64,000 bases of DNA from positions 290,346,001-290,410,000 of the forward strand of contig OZ360220.1 of NCBI GenBank assembly GCA_977017645.1, in the 5' to 3' direction. The notes under the pieces were generated by a model. That model saw only the letters and a program-made list of their open reading frames with translations. It searched no databases and was not told where the DNA came from. The stretch is from Torpedo marmorata (lineage: Eukaryota). Of the stretch, positions 403 through 59,500 are shown piece by piece. The number at the start of each line of letters is the position of its first letter. Position 1 is the first letter of the stretch. Made by a program: the position numbers and the translations under genes.

Positions 403-1066
403 CAGTGAAACCCCGATTTTACACGCCCCGATTTAATGCGAATTCGGATATAACGCGATGAGTCATTGGACCTGCTGATCAGCCTGCGCTGTCTGCCCAG
501 CACCTGAAGTACACCGTCTGGCCCTCGGCCGCCGGCACCCGCTGCGGCGACCGCTCCCGGATCCGGGGCTTGTGGCAGGCCAGCGAGTGGTGGAGTACGG
601 CGCCGCAGAACTCCGGCAGCCCCACAGGTCAGCCGGAGACGCGTACACCAGCGGCCGCTGGTCGAAGCTGAGAGCTGGGCTGGTCTGCAGCAGCCAGCGC
701 AGGTGGCAGTCGCAGCACAGCGGGTTGTTGTCCAGGCACAGCATGGCCGGCGGCAGTGCGCTCTCTTCCAGTGTGGCCAGCGCGTGGCGAGCTCCCTCAG
801 ATTGTACAACTGCTGAAGGTTCTGCTCCTGCAGGGAGCTGATGCCCAGGTAACGCAGCCGGAATGTGGCCAGGTTGTGCAGGTAGGACAGGGATTCTGCC
901 GAAATGGAGGTGAGGCAGGTTGAACAAGTTGCCGAAATCGCCCGGTTCCACGCTGCGGATGATGTTCTCGCTGTATATGTAAGTAACCCTGATTTAGCGC
1001 GACCCCGCTTTTTTCGCGATGACATTTTATGGACCCAAACAATCGCGTTATAACGGGGTTTCACTG
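403..1066. mobile_element. Non-autonomous Tigger/pogo-like TIR element carrying captured gene fragments (Pack-TIR)
   Basis: TA at 401-402 and 1067-1068. TIRs are CAGTGAAACCCCG (403-415) and CGGGGTTTCACTG (1054-1066), with subterminal (T)AACGCG/CGCGTTA-type repeats and a GC-rich interior. Confidence 0.88.
487..973 (-). pseudogene. Fragmented LINGO-family (LINGO3-like) LRR/LRRCT/Ig coding sequence inside the TIR element
   Basis: Minus-strand pieces in changing frames: SENIIRSVEPGDFGNLFNL; LTSISAESLSYLHNLATFRLRYLGISSLQEQNLQQLYNLREL; LATLEESA...LDNNPLCCDCHLRWLL...ASPADLWG; CHKPRIRERSPQRVPAAEGQTVYFRCWAD. These match LINGO LRRs, LRRCT (GNPLACDCRLLWI) and the Ig-domain start in the correct order. 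Confidence 0.85.
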
Positions 1067-30385: not shown

Positions 30386-30761
30386 GATCTTTAACATTCA
30401 ACTGAAAAAGTAATCATGCTCTCAATTTTGTTGCCTCACCTAAAATACAGTATTTAAGTACTGCAATGAAGTATTACGGTAATCTACATATAATGTTCAA
30501 GTCTTTTGAGTTGAAGTGAACAGAGACTCAGAGGCATCAGTGCTACCTATCGAGTTAAAGCTGACATTGAAATGTTTACTGCTTTAGGCTTTAAGGAATA
30601 CTAGAAATAAATAATATTCTCTTAGGCCTTTAACCCAAATTGAAATGACCACAAACCTTATAAACAGGTCAGTGAATGATAACCTGGAATGAGCATTTTG
30701 TAAATTTCCACTCTCTCTCTCCCCCTCTCACACACACACTTGGATAAAGATTTTGTTGACA

Positions 30762-32698
30762 GAACCAATAAGTTCACTACGTAAATTATATTTAAGACTG
30801 GAAGAATATGGGAAAGTATCGGGTTACAAAATAAATTGGGATAAGAGTAAAATTATGCCCCTCACTACAGGGGATTATACTCAGTGTCAAAGAGAAACCC
30901 AATATAAATGGCCGACAAATGGTATAAAATATTTAGGTATACGAGTAGATAATAATTTAAACAATTTATATAGACTGAACTATTTACCTTTACTGAAGAA
31001 AATTGGAGAAGATCTCAATAAATGGATGACGTTACCAATAACATTGTTGGGTAGAGTTAATTGTGTAAAAATGAATATATTTCCTAGAGTACAATATTTG
31101 TTTCAAACATTACCGATATTGTTACCACAAAAGTTTTTTCAAGAATTAAATAAATATATAAGGAAGTTTCTTTGGAAGGGTAAGATGTCGAGGGTTTCTT
31201 TAGAAAAATTAACATGGAAATTTGAGTTGGGAGGCTTACAGCTTCCAAATTTTAAGAATTATTATAAAGCATCTCAAACGAGATTCATTGCATCTTTCTT
31301 TGAAGGAGAGAAAATACCAGAAGATTTTATATATAAATGGGAACCTAAACTAATAACAGGTGAGAGAGAAACCCCTTTGTTGAAACATTTAATTAATATT
31401 TGGAATAAGATAAACATTGATGATGAAACGAGGGGACCTCTGTTATTAAAAATGCCTTTGATCCAAAATCGACTTATTCCTTTTACAATGGATAATCAAC
31501 TTTTAAACATATGGTCTCGTAAAGGAATTAGATACATAGAAGATTGTTATGAAGGGGATAAATTAATGTCATTTGAACAATTAAGAAATAAATATGGGAT
31601 ACAAAATAATACACTTTTTTGTTATTTTCAGTTAAGAGCATATTTAAGAGATAAATTGGGACCAACAATGTTATTACCGAAATCTAGTGATATTGAAATT
31701 TTGATTCGAAATTTTGATTACTTCAGTCATGTATACTTTACTACAAGAGAGAACTTCTAAAAAAGGGATTCATAGGTCTAGACAAAGATGGGAGATGTTT
31801 CTGATTATTAATATTGACTAACAAAATTGGACGGAATTATGTCGAGATAGTATGACAAATACAATAAATGTTAGGTCTCGATTGGCTAAATATAACTTTT
31901 TACACCAATTATATCTTACACCACAAAAATTGAAAAGGTTGAAATCAGATTTATCAGATCAATGTTTTAGATGTAATCAGGAAATAGTTACTTTTATGCA
32001 TTCTACTTGGTCCTGCCCTAAAGTAAGATCTTTTTGGACAGACTAAGAACTCTTTTGGAGCAGATTATAGGAATTAAATTTCCACAAGATCCAATGTTGT
32101 TTTTATTAGGTAATATTAAGGGGATAAGACCCAAATTGAAATTAAATATCTATCAAAAAGAATTTGTAAAAATTGCACTAGCAAAAAAATGTATAGCAGT
32201 AACTTGGAAATCAGACTCCCATTTGGGTATGGAACGGTGGAATACAGAAATGAGTAGCTTTATTCCACTTGAGAAGATTACTTATAATTTAAGAAATAAA
32301 TATGATGTATTTTTGAAAATTTGGTGCCCATATTTACAAACTGTGGGAATAAATTTATAGATATTTCCCCACCTCGAGTACCTTGTCAACCTCCCTGAGA
32401 GAATTTTTTTTTAAAAAATCGTAATTAATTAGAATCGTGTGGTGGGTAGCGACTTCTTAGCAGCCAGGTTACTTTATCTTTCTTTATAATTTTCTTTTCT
32501 TATTTCTCTTCTTTCTCCTTTTTTTTTCCTTTCTGGGGTTTTGGTTCGGGGGAGGGGGGTGGGGATTTTCTCTCTTTTTCTTTTTATATACAATCATGTA
32601 TAAATGAATCAATAATTTAATATTCTATTATGTATTTTATAAACTATACATGTATGGATGAAAATTTTTCTTAAATAAAATATTCCAAATAAAAGAAT
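30762..32698 (+). mobile_element. 5'-truncated L1-clade LINE (ORF2 C-terminal half, frameshifted)
   Basis: ORFs 30753-31760, 31852-32046 and 32034-32360 contain YGKVSGYKINWDKS, IKYLGI, GRVNCVKMN, GGLQLPN and CFRC...HSTWSC. Possible TSD ATTTTGTTG(A/G)CA at 30750-30761 and 32699-32710. Confidence 0.92.
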
Positions 32699-44565: not shown

Positions 44566-45334
44566 CCAAATATCAACATGCTGAGATACTGTCACGGTGC
44601 TCCCCAGAATAGAAAATCTATCTAAACAATCAAAAGAGCAATGGGAAAAAAAAAGTGTAGAAATACCACTAATTCCATTTGCTGACTTGTCAGAAACTGA
44701 TCATGCATATAACTCCTGCACCACAAACTAATTTTCTCCACTTTCTCTGACAAATCTGCTGGATTTTAATGACAGGTTATAAGAAATTAATGTATTATAC
44801 TGCATTGGCAAAAGGGAGACAAGTCTAGTATCAAAAGTCAAAACCATCTAATGAGTTTTATATTAATTCAATAATCGAAACCCATGCACTATTTAGAAAG
44901 AGAAACTGTTAATGCATTAATATATTGTTTACACAAATCTTCCTAAAAAATAACAAAAATCAAAATGTTCTCATGGATTAAAAAAAAGAAAGATGATGTC
45001 CTACAAATACAGACATATTGGCTTGTTTTTGCAGTGCTTTGTATCTTGAAATCAAGACCTGGACACAATTGCAACTATTTGCACCACAAATAATTTCATT
45101 CTTTAAATTAATTATTTCTCATGGAAATTCACCTTTTCACCAATGACACACATTCCACAACAATCACATGAAGGATGAAGTTATTCACACTGGAGCACCT
45201 GCCCAGGAAATTACGATAGGTCAAATTGGTCAAAGGTACATTGGACATTCTCGGAACAATGGTGCCTCGGTAGGGATCCTCCCATTGAAGCAGGGGGGCC
45301 AGACTGAGGAACCCAATTCAAGTAGGTTCCTTTA

Positions 45335-47917
45335 TTACCTCTGTATATGGATGTAGTAAATCAAATTACAGAAACCCATTCACTACCGGATACAATTTTA
45401 AATGCAATAATTACAGTATTACCAAAAAAAGATAGAGATGTATTGAAAACTGAATCATATAGACCTATCTCATTGTTAAATGTAGATTACAAGATAATGG
45501 CAAAACGTTTAGCAAATAGGATGGCTAATTATTTACCAGATTTAATTCATGTAGACCAAGCTGGTTTTATTAAGAATAGATATTCAAAAGATAATATAGC
45601 TGGATTAATTAGCTTAATTAATTTACAAAAAAAGAAAGAAGATTTACCATTAGTATTAACGTTAGATGCCGAAAAGGCTTTTGATAGACTAGAGTGGAAT
45701 TTTTTATTTAAGGTGTTGGAGAAATTTGGTTTTGGAATTACGTTTATTAATTGGATTAAAACTATATATAAAGAACCATCTGCTAAAGTGGTTACAAATG
45801 GACAGATTTCTTCAAGATTTCCTTTGACTTGATCTACTAGACAAGGATGTCCTTTGTCACCAGCGTTATTTATTTTGGCGATAGAACCTTTGGCAGAATT
45901 AGTTAGAAAAGATCCTAAAATAGTTGGTATTAAAGTTGGAACGGAAGAACATAAAATTAGTTTATTTGCAGATGATGTATTGATATATATGACAAAATCT
46001 ATTACATCTTTAGTACAACTGTCTGCGTTATTGAGAGAATATGGGGAAATATCTGGATATAAAATTAATTCTGATAAAAGTGAAATTATGGCATTATCAC
46101 AAGGGGATTATAGTAAATGTAAAGAAATTATACAATTTAAATGGGCAAAGGAAGGAATTAAATATTTGGGAATAAGGATTGACACAAAATTGGCTAATTT
46201 ATATAAATTAAATTATTTACCATTATTTGTGAAAATAAAAAAGGATTTAGAAAATTGGAAAGATTTACCTATAACTTTAATGGGAAGAGTAAATTGTATT
46301 AAAATGAATGTTTTTCCAAGAAATCAATATCTTTTTCAATCAATTCCTTATGAAATTCGTCAAAAAATTTTCAAAGATTTAAATTCAATTATTAGAAAAT
46401 TTTTATGGAAAGGAAAGTTAGCAAGAGTAGGTATGGAAAAATTAACTTGGAATTATGAAATGGGTGGTTTACAACTTCCTAATTTCCAAAATTATTATAA
46501 AGCAGCTCAATTAAAATTTGTTAATGAATTTTTTGATTCAACTAAATCTTCTGCTTGGATTAAAATAGAACTAAATAATATAGGAGAAGATTCCAAAGAA
46601 GAAGTTATTTATAAATGGGATTCTAAATTAATATCAACAAGAAAGAAAAATTCTCCTATTCTTAAACATTTGTTAGAAATATGGAATAAGACGGAGAAGG
46701 AAATAGGAGGAAAAGGATTGATTTCTTCAAGGATGCCTTTATATCAAAATGGACTTATTCCATTTACTATTAATAATCAATTATTTAGAATTTGGTTTCA
46801 AAAAGGAATTAAGAAAATAAATGATTGTTTTGAAGCTGGGAAATTTATTACTTTTCAAAGAATGAAAGATAAATTTAATATATTAGATAATACACTTTTT
46901 GCTTATTATCAAATTAGAGCTTTTTTGATTGAGAAATTAGGTTATGCTTTGACTTTACCAAGACAGAATGAATTAGAATTATTAGTTACTAAAGGAGATG
47001 TAAACAAATTTATTTCTCAAATGTATAAATTGTTTCAGAGGAAAATTCCTAAAGTAGGAATTCATAGATCAAGATTAAAATGGGAATTAGATTTGAACGT
47101 AACAATAGATGAAAATCATTGGAAAGAATTATGTAAATTAAGTATGACGAAGATTATTAATGTTAGATATAGATTAGTACAATACAATTTTTTTCATCAA
47201 TTATATTTAACACCTAAAAAATTAAAGAAATTTAACCCGACATTATCAGGTTTATGTTTCAGATGTAATAAAGAGGATGGTTCTTTTGTACATTCTACAT
47301 GGTTTTGTCCAAAAGTCTACGATTTTTGGTTCAAAGTTAAAAAAATTTTAGATAAAGTATTTAAGATTATATTCCCGATGGATCCTATGATATTTTTGTT
47401 TGGAGATATTAAAAAATTTAGTATTAAAATGAAATTAAATATGTATCAAATAGAATTTTTGCGAATTGCTTTAGCTGTTTCAAAGAAATGCATTGCTATT
47501 ACTTGGAAATCTGATGTTGATTTAGGGTTAGAAAGATGGCATGCAGAACTTCGTTCATGTATACCACTTGAAAAAATTACTTATAACTTACGGAATAAAT
47601 ATCATTTCTTTTTAAAAATATGGAGCCCTTATATGAAAGCTGTTGGATTAAGGATTTGAAGATCTCTGGACATTGGATCTACTGGCTACCTAACCTCCAT
47701 AATAGAATTAGTTTATAGATGTATTTATTAGATTGACATTCTCCTTACCTTATCTTTTTCTTCTCTATTTCTTTTTTTTTAAATATTTTATTAGATTAGT
47801 GAGGTTGAGAGGGTTGGGGAGGGGAGGGTGTAAATGTATCACAAGTATTTTTGATAATTTTATATTTTATTCTATGTATTTTGTGATTTAAAATTTTAAA
47901 TAAAATATTTTTTTAAA
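45335..47917 (+). mobile_element. 5'-truncated, young L1-clade LINE with RT domain through C-terminal zinc knuckle
   Basis: ORFs 45347-45832 and 45854-47659 are in the same frame, separated by one TGA. Motifs are YRPISLLNVDYKI, QAGF, LDAEKAFD, RQGCPLSP, LFADD and CFRC..H....C. Perfect 15-bp TSD AAGTAGGTTCCTTTA at 45320-45334 and 47918-47932. Confidence 0.96.
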
Positions 47918-56999: not shown

Positions 57000-59500
57000 G
57001 AAAACTTTCGCTATCTTCTAACAATTCGAAAAGAGAGGGGGGTGGGTGGGGTCTCTCGCAGAGATGCAGCTTAAATTGGAACCTAAATATTGCGCTTTTA
57101 TTGCAGAAAGAGATTTTGTTATGTTTGATCTCGTTAAAAGCAGACCGGCATTCGTGGAGCAATTGCTAAATCTTCGACCGTATCCGGGCACGTTAAAAAC
57201 CAGAACATCGGTGAGCATGGTCACGGTTGCACAGATGGGACGGCAACACTGCGAGGTTTTGGTGGCTGTGGATCGGATGCTGGAAGTTGGGCCCAGCCTC
57301 ACACTGACGGCTGAAGCTGTCTCCAAGTTTCACTCAAACTTTAGCGCCTCTCCCCGCTCACAAGAACCAGGAGGCGCCCGCTGAACAACTCCCAAGTAAT
57401 TGCCTTAGGATTCCACCGCTTTCCTTCCAGATTTAATTTCCCTCCAGCCCAACATCTTTTATACTTTAAAAAAAAAACCCTTTAAAGCCGTGCAGGCGGA
57501 CGGTCTACCATCCATGTCAGTGGTGGGGCAGCGGACGGGTAAACTTCGCACCACGACCACAGGGTCGCGGCCGCAGCGTTAACTCTGTCCCGGGGAGGCG
57601 GCGTAGCGACTTGTTGGAAGCACAGGAGTTGGAAACTCCACCGCTGGCAGCTTTCCCCAGACGCACACAACGCGGGCGGAGTAGACAGCGCAGCGGCTGC
57701 ATTCAAACCCCGTGTGCGCGCCTTTGAACCGGAGCCGGCGCCTCGTTGCCATTCAACGCACTTAACCCGGTTTCCATGTGCCTGTCACCACAGCGAGAAG
57801 CGCGGTTCACCTGGAAAAATGCTCTTCTCGTCTGTTGAACGCCGCTGTTCCCGACACCCCCTCCCGTTTGAATCATTTATTTGTGCAAACAAAATAGCGA
57901 CATCCCCAGAGTTTACCAGAAAGGTAACCCGAACCAGTATTTTTCACCCCCCCCCCCCCCCCAATCCCCAGCAGTGATTTTTGTCTTTAGTATTAAAAAG
58001 AGCCAACTGCGGGCGGCGCAGCATCCCCTCCGCCGCGGTGCAGCCGGGCCGCGCCGCACTCACTCCGCCCCCCGCGGCCCGCTCCAGCGCGCCTTACCTC
58101 GGGTTGGTGCTGTTCCAGTAGACGGCGTACCGATCGGCTACCACTTTGCCGGGCTCCTGCGACCAAACACACATCCAGAGCAGCAGGAAGACGACAAGTA
58201 CCTCCGTGTTGATCATGGCTGCGGAGAAGATGAGGAGAACCCGCCCTTTAAAGTCTCTCTCTCCCTCTCTACTCTTCCAAAGTTAAAGCTTCAGATTCCC
58301 ACTCTCATTCAGCGTCTTTTCAGATAAATCAGGCTCGAAGAGACCAAGTCCAAAACTGTAGCAAGAAATGGGAAGGAAGGAGCAGTGACTGTGCAGACCA
58401 CGTCAAAGCCAGAGACCTGATGGAGATTTTAATTCATCGGAACACGATGAGAGGCAGTGGTCTGTGAAATCAAATCAAACAATTACGAATCCCCGGGCAG
58501 CAGGGAATGAGATTGGCGCAAAGTTCTGTAAAACGAGGTTAAGTCCGCAATCTGTATGCAACTGGGGCAGCAATCGGCAAGAAAAAAGTCGGTGCAAAGA
58601 GAGCCCGAAGTAACGACGTGCGTTGTTGGTGCTGCTGGTGGCGGTGATGTGTGAGAGAGATCGATGTTTTAAATTATATGTATTCAGTTACTGGGAGTAT
58701 AACAAGACCGGCTGGAGATTCCCGAGGCGACAGCATCCAGGCAATCCGTCACAGCATCCCTTTTTCTTTGCCTCGCCCACCCCTCCCTCCCCAAAACCCA
58801 CCCACCCCCGTCCCCAACTGAAGATGTGGTTTGCAGAGCTGGAGGCAAGTCGCCGCTGCACCCCAAGTGCAAAGCCCTCTGCAAACACAGCCCGGGCAAG
58901 CAGCAACGGAGCCGCCCCTCCCGCACAGTGGGGGGGGGGTGGGGTGAGGTAGATGGGTGGGTGTTTGATTTGGTGGTGTGCCCCTCCCCTTGACGGGCTG
59001 AGCAGCCGGGATCCGGAGAGAAATCCGAGTCGGGGCGGAGAGCAGAGGCTGCGGGACGAGAGTGCCGCCGCTTCATTGACAGTCTTGGCGGCGCCGACTT
59101 GTTTGGGGGGCTGGCAAGGGAGGCGGGGCGGCTCCGGGGGAAGGGGCGGGGATTGCAGCCGAGGAGTGGGGTGGATCGCCAGCTTCTGACACCCCCCCCC
59201 CTCTCCTTTAACCGCCCTCGCAACCGCTGATAGGCTGGCCCTGACCCCACCCCCCAGCCTCTCCGCCAATACGTGCACTCGTCCAAAACCCGGCGAAGTC
59301 GGGTGTCGGCGAACACAGGCGGCTGTCACCTCGTATATCCTCAGCATCCAGCCTTGTTTGCTCTTACCTTTCCAGCCTGTTCTGCACAAGCCGGATCACG
59401 TCGTCGAAAATAACTCTGACCTTCTCCACGACCGTCTGCCTTTGTAGGGATCGCGCTTTGACTTCATTGTCGAGAAACTCACCTGTTCATTTACAAGCTC
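57000..59500 (-). promoter_or_regulatory. CpG island / promoter and 5' region of the ephrin-A gene
   Basis: GC and CpG density rise sharply around the first exon. GC boxes (GGGGCGG near 59125 and 59143), CCAAT near 59266, and G-runs. Confidence 0.8.
58098..58216 (-). CDS. efna5: Ephrin-A (most likely ephrin-A5), first coding exon: signal peptide and start of the receptor-binding domain
   Basis: GCAGCC-ATG Kozak context. 119 nt encode MINTEVLVVFLLLWMCVWSQEPGKVVADRYAVYWNSTNP(R), ending in a phase-2 donor AG|GTAAGG, matching the EFNA5 exon 1 motif LWMCV.SQ.PG..VADRYAVYWNS.NPR. EFNA2 cannot be fully excluded. Confidence 0.9.

Follow-up and report, generated by a model that had tools for sequence, protein, structure and literature searches.

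The analysed window, a stretch of 64,000 nucleotides of Torpedo marmorata (contig OZ360220.1, positions 290,346,001 to 290,410,000 of the forward strand), contains the coding part of an ephrin-A exon 1 and, close to its left end, a 664-bp transposable element.

The element at 403-1066 and its host locus

Exon 1 of the ephrin-A gene lies on the minus strand at 58216-58098, and the next ephrin exon on this strand, whose best match is ephrin-A5, is located 174 kb beyond the element. Based on strand, order and position, the two exons presumably belong to one EFNA5 gene, and the element would be situated within its first intron of 232 kb. The cargo of the element is sense to the ephrin-A transcript, as stated in the first-pass annotation; this copy would therefore be part of the EFNA5 pre-mRNA, and an intronic LINGO RNA is predicted from the position of the window copy alone. 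Inside the same putative intron, at G000:C2:290177834, lies another end belonging to this transposon family. Further repeats are found in the window: an inverted-repeat-bounded element with several internal hairpins and 23-nt arms that are 91% complementary is located at 1182-1805, 115 bp from the element described here, and long open frames at 45326-47659 and 30693-31760 (both plus strand) resemble, as judged by eye, remnants of LINE reverse transcriptases.

The element at 403-1066 is flanked by TA on either side and bounded by perfect 13-bp terminal inverted repeats (TIRs; CAGTGAAACCCCG), and the earlier description of a 664-bp element with a TA target-site duplication is thus borne out. The TIR length of 13 bp holds for the window copy; the TIR of the parent element is around 22 bp long, and 13 bp are the part that is still perfect in the derivative. 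The GC content is 66% in 487-973 compared with 39% in the whole window. The following features were assigned:

401-402: left TA target-site duplication
403-471, plus strand: left arm, the first 69 bp of an autonomous pogo/Tigger-type element (transposase 5' side), with the TIR at 403-415; 84% to parent copy L214
472-489, minus strand: LINGO3 piece D (18 nt), from the Ig domain of the donor, CDS 1368-1385; microhomology of 2 nt with the left arm and 3 nt with piece C
487-785, minus strand: LINGO3 piece C, donor CDS 1016-1333 (last LRR, LRRCT, Ig start); consensus 318 nt, 99.4% to the donor
776-792, minus strand: B/C junction region with a short duplication, which is complete in 41 of 56 copies
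788-915, minus strand: LINGO3 piece B, donor CDS 588-715 (LRRs); consensus 128 nt, 99.2% to the donor
915-973, minus strand: LINGO3 piece A, donor CDS 288-346 (LRR), overlapping piece B by 1 nt; consensus 59 nt, 100% to the donor
974-984, plus strand: 11-nt filler, unlike donor or parent at that position; 9 nt in another subfamily
985-1066, plus strand: right arm, the last 82 bp of the autonomous element, with the TIR at 1054-1066; 93% to parent copy L214 over 72 nt
1067-1068: right TA target-site duplication
58098-58216, minus strand: exon 1 of the host gene ephrin-A5, coding part; the element would lie in the first intron of this gene

The cargo indeed consists of four pieces, as first proposed, but their boundaries are 973-915, 915-788, 785-487 and 489-472. 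A piece boundary had been placed near 618; however, 787-620 and 618-487 form a single donor piece of 318 nt, and the split between them stems from a later 7-nt deletion shared by 4 of 56 copies. In the window copy, this piece additionally carries a later deletion of 12 nt. The true fourth piece is the 18-nt segment at 472-489, which was absent from the earlier reading.

A single-copy LINGO3 exon as the donor

The minus-strand translation of the cargo has LINGO-1 as its best PDB match (E 1.3e-8), and five LINGO genes are present in the 6.2-Gb genome. Comparison with these genes revealed that the cargo of the family consensus corresponds to L034 (contig C54), with 99.2-99.4% over the two long pieces and 100% for piece A, whereas the other four LINGO genes reach 70-83% over short stretches. 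L034 is an intact frame of 614 codons, and the LINGO3 CDS is a single open frame without introns. The named homologues of L034 are LINGO3 proteins, the closest being LINGO3a of Callorhinchus milii (69%), and all four named LINGO3 proteins tested favour L034 over the other four LINGO genes. Two of these, L031 and L035, are divergent LINGO genes with 35-42% to LINGO3 references. The sequence at 487-973, which had been described as LINGO-like and closest to LINGO3, could therefore be mapped to the genome's own LINGO3 exon with a consensus identity of 99-100%, and LINGO homology is confined between the element ends. A distant donor had been predicted from the GC content; indeed, L034 is a single-copy exon on a contig other than that of the window copy.

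Of the parts of the donor exon that were measured, the one that supplied the largest captured piece (CDS 1016-1333, 76% GC) is the richest in GC and CpG. It is also the most diverged part of L034, with 58-64% to the four closest proteins tested, compared with 72-73% among those proteins. The copies share this diverged form, and the divergence thus predates the capture.

All four pieces are colinear and on the same strand of the donor (CDS 288-346, 588-715, 1016-1333 and 1368-1385; 59, 128, 318 and 18 nt), within one span of 1,098 nt. A genome search with the two long skipped stretches and with the exon beyond piece D returned the donor and its paralogues only. Since the skipped stretches are found in the donor only, the skipping preceded the amplification of the element. 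Neither a founder copy nor any other family sequence was found in 229 kb around the donor (about 110 kb on each side). As L034 is not itself flanked by an element and the skipped stretches are single-copy, the arrangement does not stem from a segmental duplication. Splicing was ruled out as the cause of the skips because the skipped stretches are not GT-AG introns, and a processed pseudogene or retrocopy was rejected because the consensus shows no poly(A) tail, no target-site duplication of its own and no spliced junctions.

Amplification, parent element and sister subfamilies

The copy number was determined using a 26-mer that spans the A/B junction and is unable to match the donor. Allowing up to two mismatches, it yielded 393 matches, compared with none for the control, so that at least 393 copies exist; as 28 of 30 independently picked copies fit the 26-mer, a number of around 400 is a floor. 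The matches are spread over many contigs. A DNA search with the element returned 2,346 candidates, among them sister elements with the same ends, and of 40 scored candidates, 39 other copies span nearly the whole query at 89-92%. Thirty copies were used to derive a consensus of 683 bp, from which they diverge by 4.1% on average (11.6% at CpG sites, 2.0% at other sites), and their flanks are unrelated. The copies thus occupy independent TA sites but have their junctions in common. Among 56 distinct copies examined, 46 have both ends, and 45 of these are bordered by TA on both sides. For 15 copies that are inserted in other repeats and have a spanning paralogous empty site, the empty site contained a single TA in 10 cases. 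Thus, the window element is a Pack-TIR, with transposon ends and a TA duplication around an interior of host DNA from an identified donor, present in multiple copies with unrelated flanks. Its classification as a pogo Pack-TIR that carries LINGO3 cargo at high copy number is practically certain.

The 30 copies picked by their junction comprise 16 of the full type, 12 with a shared 89-nt deletion and 2 that are truncated; the diagnostic changes are partly mosaic between the full and the deletion type. Contigs bridging the A/B junction were also present in all four runs inspected, which are coded as four different organisms, and the family probably predates some species splits. Run X8 gave at most a hint of an empty orthologous site: contig depth was equal on both flanks, but none of the listed joints crosses the element.

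The first-pass annotation had called the element Tigger-like and expected its ends to belong to a dispersed repeat family; both the copies with cargo and an autonomous pogo/Tigger-type parent were found. The parent was reached via an internally deleted sister subfamily that shares the ends and the transposase start, while the 30 best DDE_1 loci had no match to the element ends. Autonomous parent elements are around 1.85 kb long and have TIRs of about 22 bp, TA duplications and the same ends as the LINGO3 element. One of them contains an open frame of 556 residues with CENP-B_N, HTH_Tnp_Tc5 and DDE_1 domains and a DD34D triad; for parent copy L209, these three domains were recorded with E 1.7e-40 for DDE_1. 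The right-end 23-mer has 1,362 matches with at most one mismatch, a figure in which both ends of parent-type copies are counted. The LINGO3 element retains the first 69 and the last 82 bp, which correspond to about 8% of the parent, and around 92% has been replaced. The cargo is antisense to the direction of the parent's transposase.

Based on the DDE_1 domain, the DDxxD triad, the CENP-B-type DNA-binding domains, the TA duplication and the short TIR, the parent belongs to the pogo superfamily. In the available part of Gao et al. 2020 (PMC7386202), Tigger elements are characterized by a TA duplication, a TIR below 40 bp, a CENP-B_N domain as well as an HTH_Tnp_Tc5 domain and a DD29-36D spacing, all of which apply to the Torpedo parent, with DD34D inside the Tigger range. 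The same source gives pogoR a spacing of DD29-59D/E and the same DNA-binding domains as Tigger, so that pogoR overlaps these features of the parent in a comparison made by domains and spacing. Domain set and spacing would thus suit both families, and the parent may be either a Tigger or a pogoR element.

The element ends are shared with sister subfamilies that carry other interiors. The exact left-end 25-mer has 566 matches; among the first 30 of these, 2 contain the full LINGO3 cargo, 3 contain only its first 27-30 nt, and the rest have other interiors. In the three partial copies (L045, L053 and L064), the LINGO3 segment includes the C/D junction and is fused to an interior of 26-bp tandem repeats. 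As they carry this junction, the three copies postdate the capture and show that sister elements exchange parts. In the sister subfamily of L047, which has the same ends and gave 54 and 55 matches for two patterns, a stretch of 335 bp also occurs at C74:11,729,199-11,729,533 (L244:1499-1833). This locus, one of 12 candidate loci examined for the L047 interior, matches with 95%, exactly to the module borders and without element ends. It probably served as the donor of a second capture and has no evident coding frame; none of the 12 candidate loci supplied a donor for the latter half of the L047 interior. Another interior module, present in L055, L060, L061, L071 and L072, gave 215 matches to its pattern and contains a splice-donor-like site. 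No source for it emerged from the 30 loci examined, all of which are elements. Taken together, repeated capture and module swapping between subfamilies are supported.

Several other features of the sister elements were observed. Just inside the right arm of L043, L047, L048 and related copies, the interior ends in TA and a copy of the element's left end, which is fused to the right arm, as if DNA flanking the left end of another copy had been copied in. The interiors of L050, L051, L057, L066, L067 and L070 start with a near-perfect palindrome of around 190 bp. L245 and L246 are inverted sister-subfamily copies that lie 12 kb apart on C48 and share a variant, which suggests that they arose by a local hop or duplication. 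Searches against Rfam (6 loci) and Pfam (the cargo translations and one sibling frame) gave no match.

Capture mechanism, fate of the copies and related systems

In gene sense, the A/B junction has an overlap of 1 nt, the C/D junction an overlap of 3 nt and the junction of D with the left arm an overlap of 2 nt, while A is joined to the right arm by the 11-nt filler. The B/C junction is read as a switch at a 5-nt microhomology followed by a back-slip of 10 nt at a 4-nt microhomology, thereby leaving the short duplication. The junction microhomologies of 1, 5 and 3 nt add up to 9 nt (P ~0.008 compared with random CDS junctions, which average 0.8 nt), a value that is derived from three junctions, for which the B/C reading was chosen after seeing the sequence and in which the A/B overlap is as short as 1 nt. 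The breaks in the element lie near its termini, which is the pattern that section 8 of Tan et al. 2021 (PMC8277862) predicts for excision-induced repair and the opposite of the single-copy cases described in the available part of that paper. From the position of the breaks and the junction microhomologies, we infer a single repair event in which the template was switched several times in series. The element likely originated when a gap left by excision was repaired, with all switches made in one event, and was then transposed in trans; the earlier suggestion of template switching or discontinuous gap repair, in which long stretches were dropped, is a probable route that fits the junctions.

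According to this model, a family member would have been excised or broken near its ends, and repair synthesis would have moved from the element, after its first 69 bp, into the GC-rich LINGO3 exon. Three skips along the same template at short microhomologies, one of them with a back-slip, would then have been followed by the addition of the 11-nt filler and the rejoining of the right arm. As the product kept both transposase-binding ends, it could be mobilised in trans, likely by the parent transposase, and successive master copies would have given rise to the 89-nt deletion subfamily and to hybrids with sister elements.

The skips may also have arisen after the capture. A contiguous LINGO3 stretch of about 1.1 kb (CDS 288-1385) could have been captured first; three deletions in a founder line of low copy number would then have yielded the 683-bp form that was amplified, a course of events that would account for four colinear pieces on the same strand within one 1,098-nt span. 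The family does produce and amplify microhomology-flanked deletions, as the 89-nt deletion in 12 of 30 copies arose later; this argues against one-step skipping and makes deletion after capture a real alternative. Moreover, shorter derivatives are commonly favoured in transposition. However, no copy with the two long skipped stretches was found, as only the donor and its paralogues match them, whereas for every later deletion many copies of either form persist, and the short duplication at B/C is better explained by template slippage than by plain deletion. Capture followed by deletion is thus considered unlikely.

A very unlikely origin is LINGO3 RNA or cDNA, either through repair on an RNA template or through retroposition into a small element that was already present. 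All pieces are coding, and since the LINGO3 CDS lacks introns, these cannot discriminate between a DNA and a cDNA template; however, the skipped stretches have no GT-AG ends in any register shown, the consensus contains neither a poly(A) tract nor a duplication around the cargo, and the donor of the sister subfamily is a stretch without an evident reading frame.

After their capture, the LINGO3 pieces appear to have evolved without protein-level constraint. The pieces are mutually out of frame in the consensus; neither a signal peptide nor a membrane anchor is present, and a piece is interrupted by a frameshift in 23 of 30 copies. After removal of four duplicate loci, five shared sites and indel-adjacent positions, 56 copies gave a pN/pS of 1.14 (0.93-1.36) when only non-CpG sites were counted and of 0.89 (0.79-1.00) when CpG sites were included; a coarser first pass, which pooled unlike mutation types, had given 0.75. 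The lower values with CpG sites are tentatively attributed to differences in CpG mutation by codon position. The mean non-CpG divergence from the donor is 2.9%. Thus, the copies look neutral, and the cargo would be a decaying passenger that cannot encode LINGO3.

That the copies were instead kept or amplified for a benefit to the host, with LINGO3 pieces acting as peptides or as regulatory RNA on LINGO3, is extremely improbable. Such a role would be in line with the high copy number, the non-CpG identity of around 97% to the donor, the orientation of the cargo antisense to the transposase and the all-site pN/pS slightly below 1; however, the reading frames are disrupted as described, decay at CpG sites is about six times as fast as elsewhere, and sister subfamilies without gene cargo have also reached 55 to 215 copies. 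A broader proposal sees the pogo/Tigger family as a vertebrate counterpart of plant Pack-MULEs, with repeated capture of host DNA, module swaps and hundred-fold amplification, in which around 400 LINGO3 copies feed small or antisense RNA onto LINGO3; as a whole, this is speculative and rather improbable. The system allows a direct vertebrate test of the idea that fragments, once captured, attract silencing by small RNA or methylation to the gene they came from. As parent, donor gene, junctions and subfamilies are all legible in one genome, models of capture can be tested at base level. In practical terms, around 400 LINGO3 look-alikes can inflate gene counts and lead to mis-mapped reads in genomes of the Torpedo marmorata lineage.

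A literature search on LINGO3 together with transposons or the expansion of transposable elements brought up no publication that describes it; as the search did not extend to repeat libraries (Repbase, Dfam) or to the majority of subscription journals, the repeat may already bear a library name. Foreign DNA has been multiplied by other vertebrate DNA transposons. As described in the available part of PMC6887750, MER6/MER6A is likewise a Tc1/mariner-type MITE with a TA duplication and a foreign interior at hundreds of copies, but its cargo is a SINE inserted into the MITE and not a set of joined host coding pieces. Bat Helitrons also carry host gene fragments at high copy number (12,382 copies, 54 genes), but, according to the available part of Thomas et al. 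2014 (PMC4224331), they are rolling-circle elements that lack TIRs and use another capture route. The plant Pack-TYPE and Pack-Mariner elements covered in the available part of Gisby and Catoni 2022 (PMC8903248) resemble the Torpedo family in being non-autonomous and TA-targeting, in containing gene fragments, in forming subfamilies with variable cargo and in exchanging parts. Plant Pack-Mariners are mostly low-copy, and the model given there is the capture of DNA beside neighbouring insertions; in contrast, the Torpedo LINGO3 donor has no nearby element, and the cargo is discontinuous.

The closest comparison is provided by the animal Pack-TIRs of Tan et al., which, in the available part of the paper, the one survey devoted to such elements, are nearly always single-copy repair accidents. 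Four multicopy cases in frog and alligator are reported there among 100 animal reference genomes, the described one having three copies and a 5' UTR cargo; the elephant shark has 0 Pack-TIRs, and LINGO was absent from the 12 supplementary files searched. The Torpedo element shares with these Pack-TIRs the TIR ends around host DNA, an identified parent copy and short microhomologies, and with the multicopy cases a distant donor, a GC-rich cargo and recurrent transposition evident from separate target sites. What is new, relative to the example published there (PMC8277862), is a cut-and-paste element that has amplified vertebrate host coding DNA around 100 times further. Unlike the cases described in that source, the Torpedo family comprises about 400 copies, its cargo is a four-piece coding mosaic, and its breaks lie near the termini of the element.
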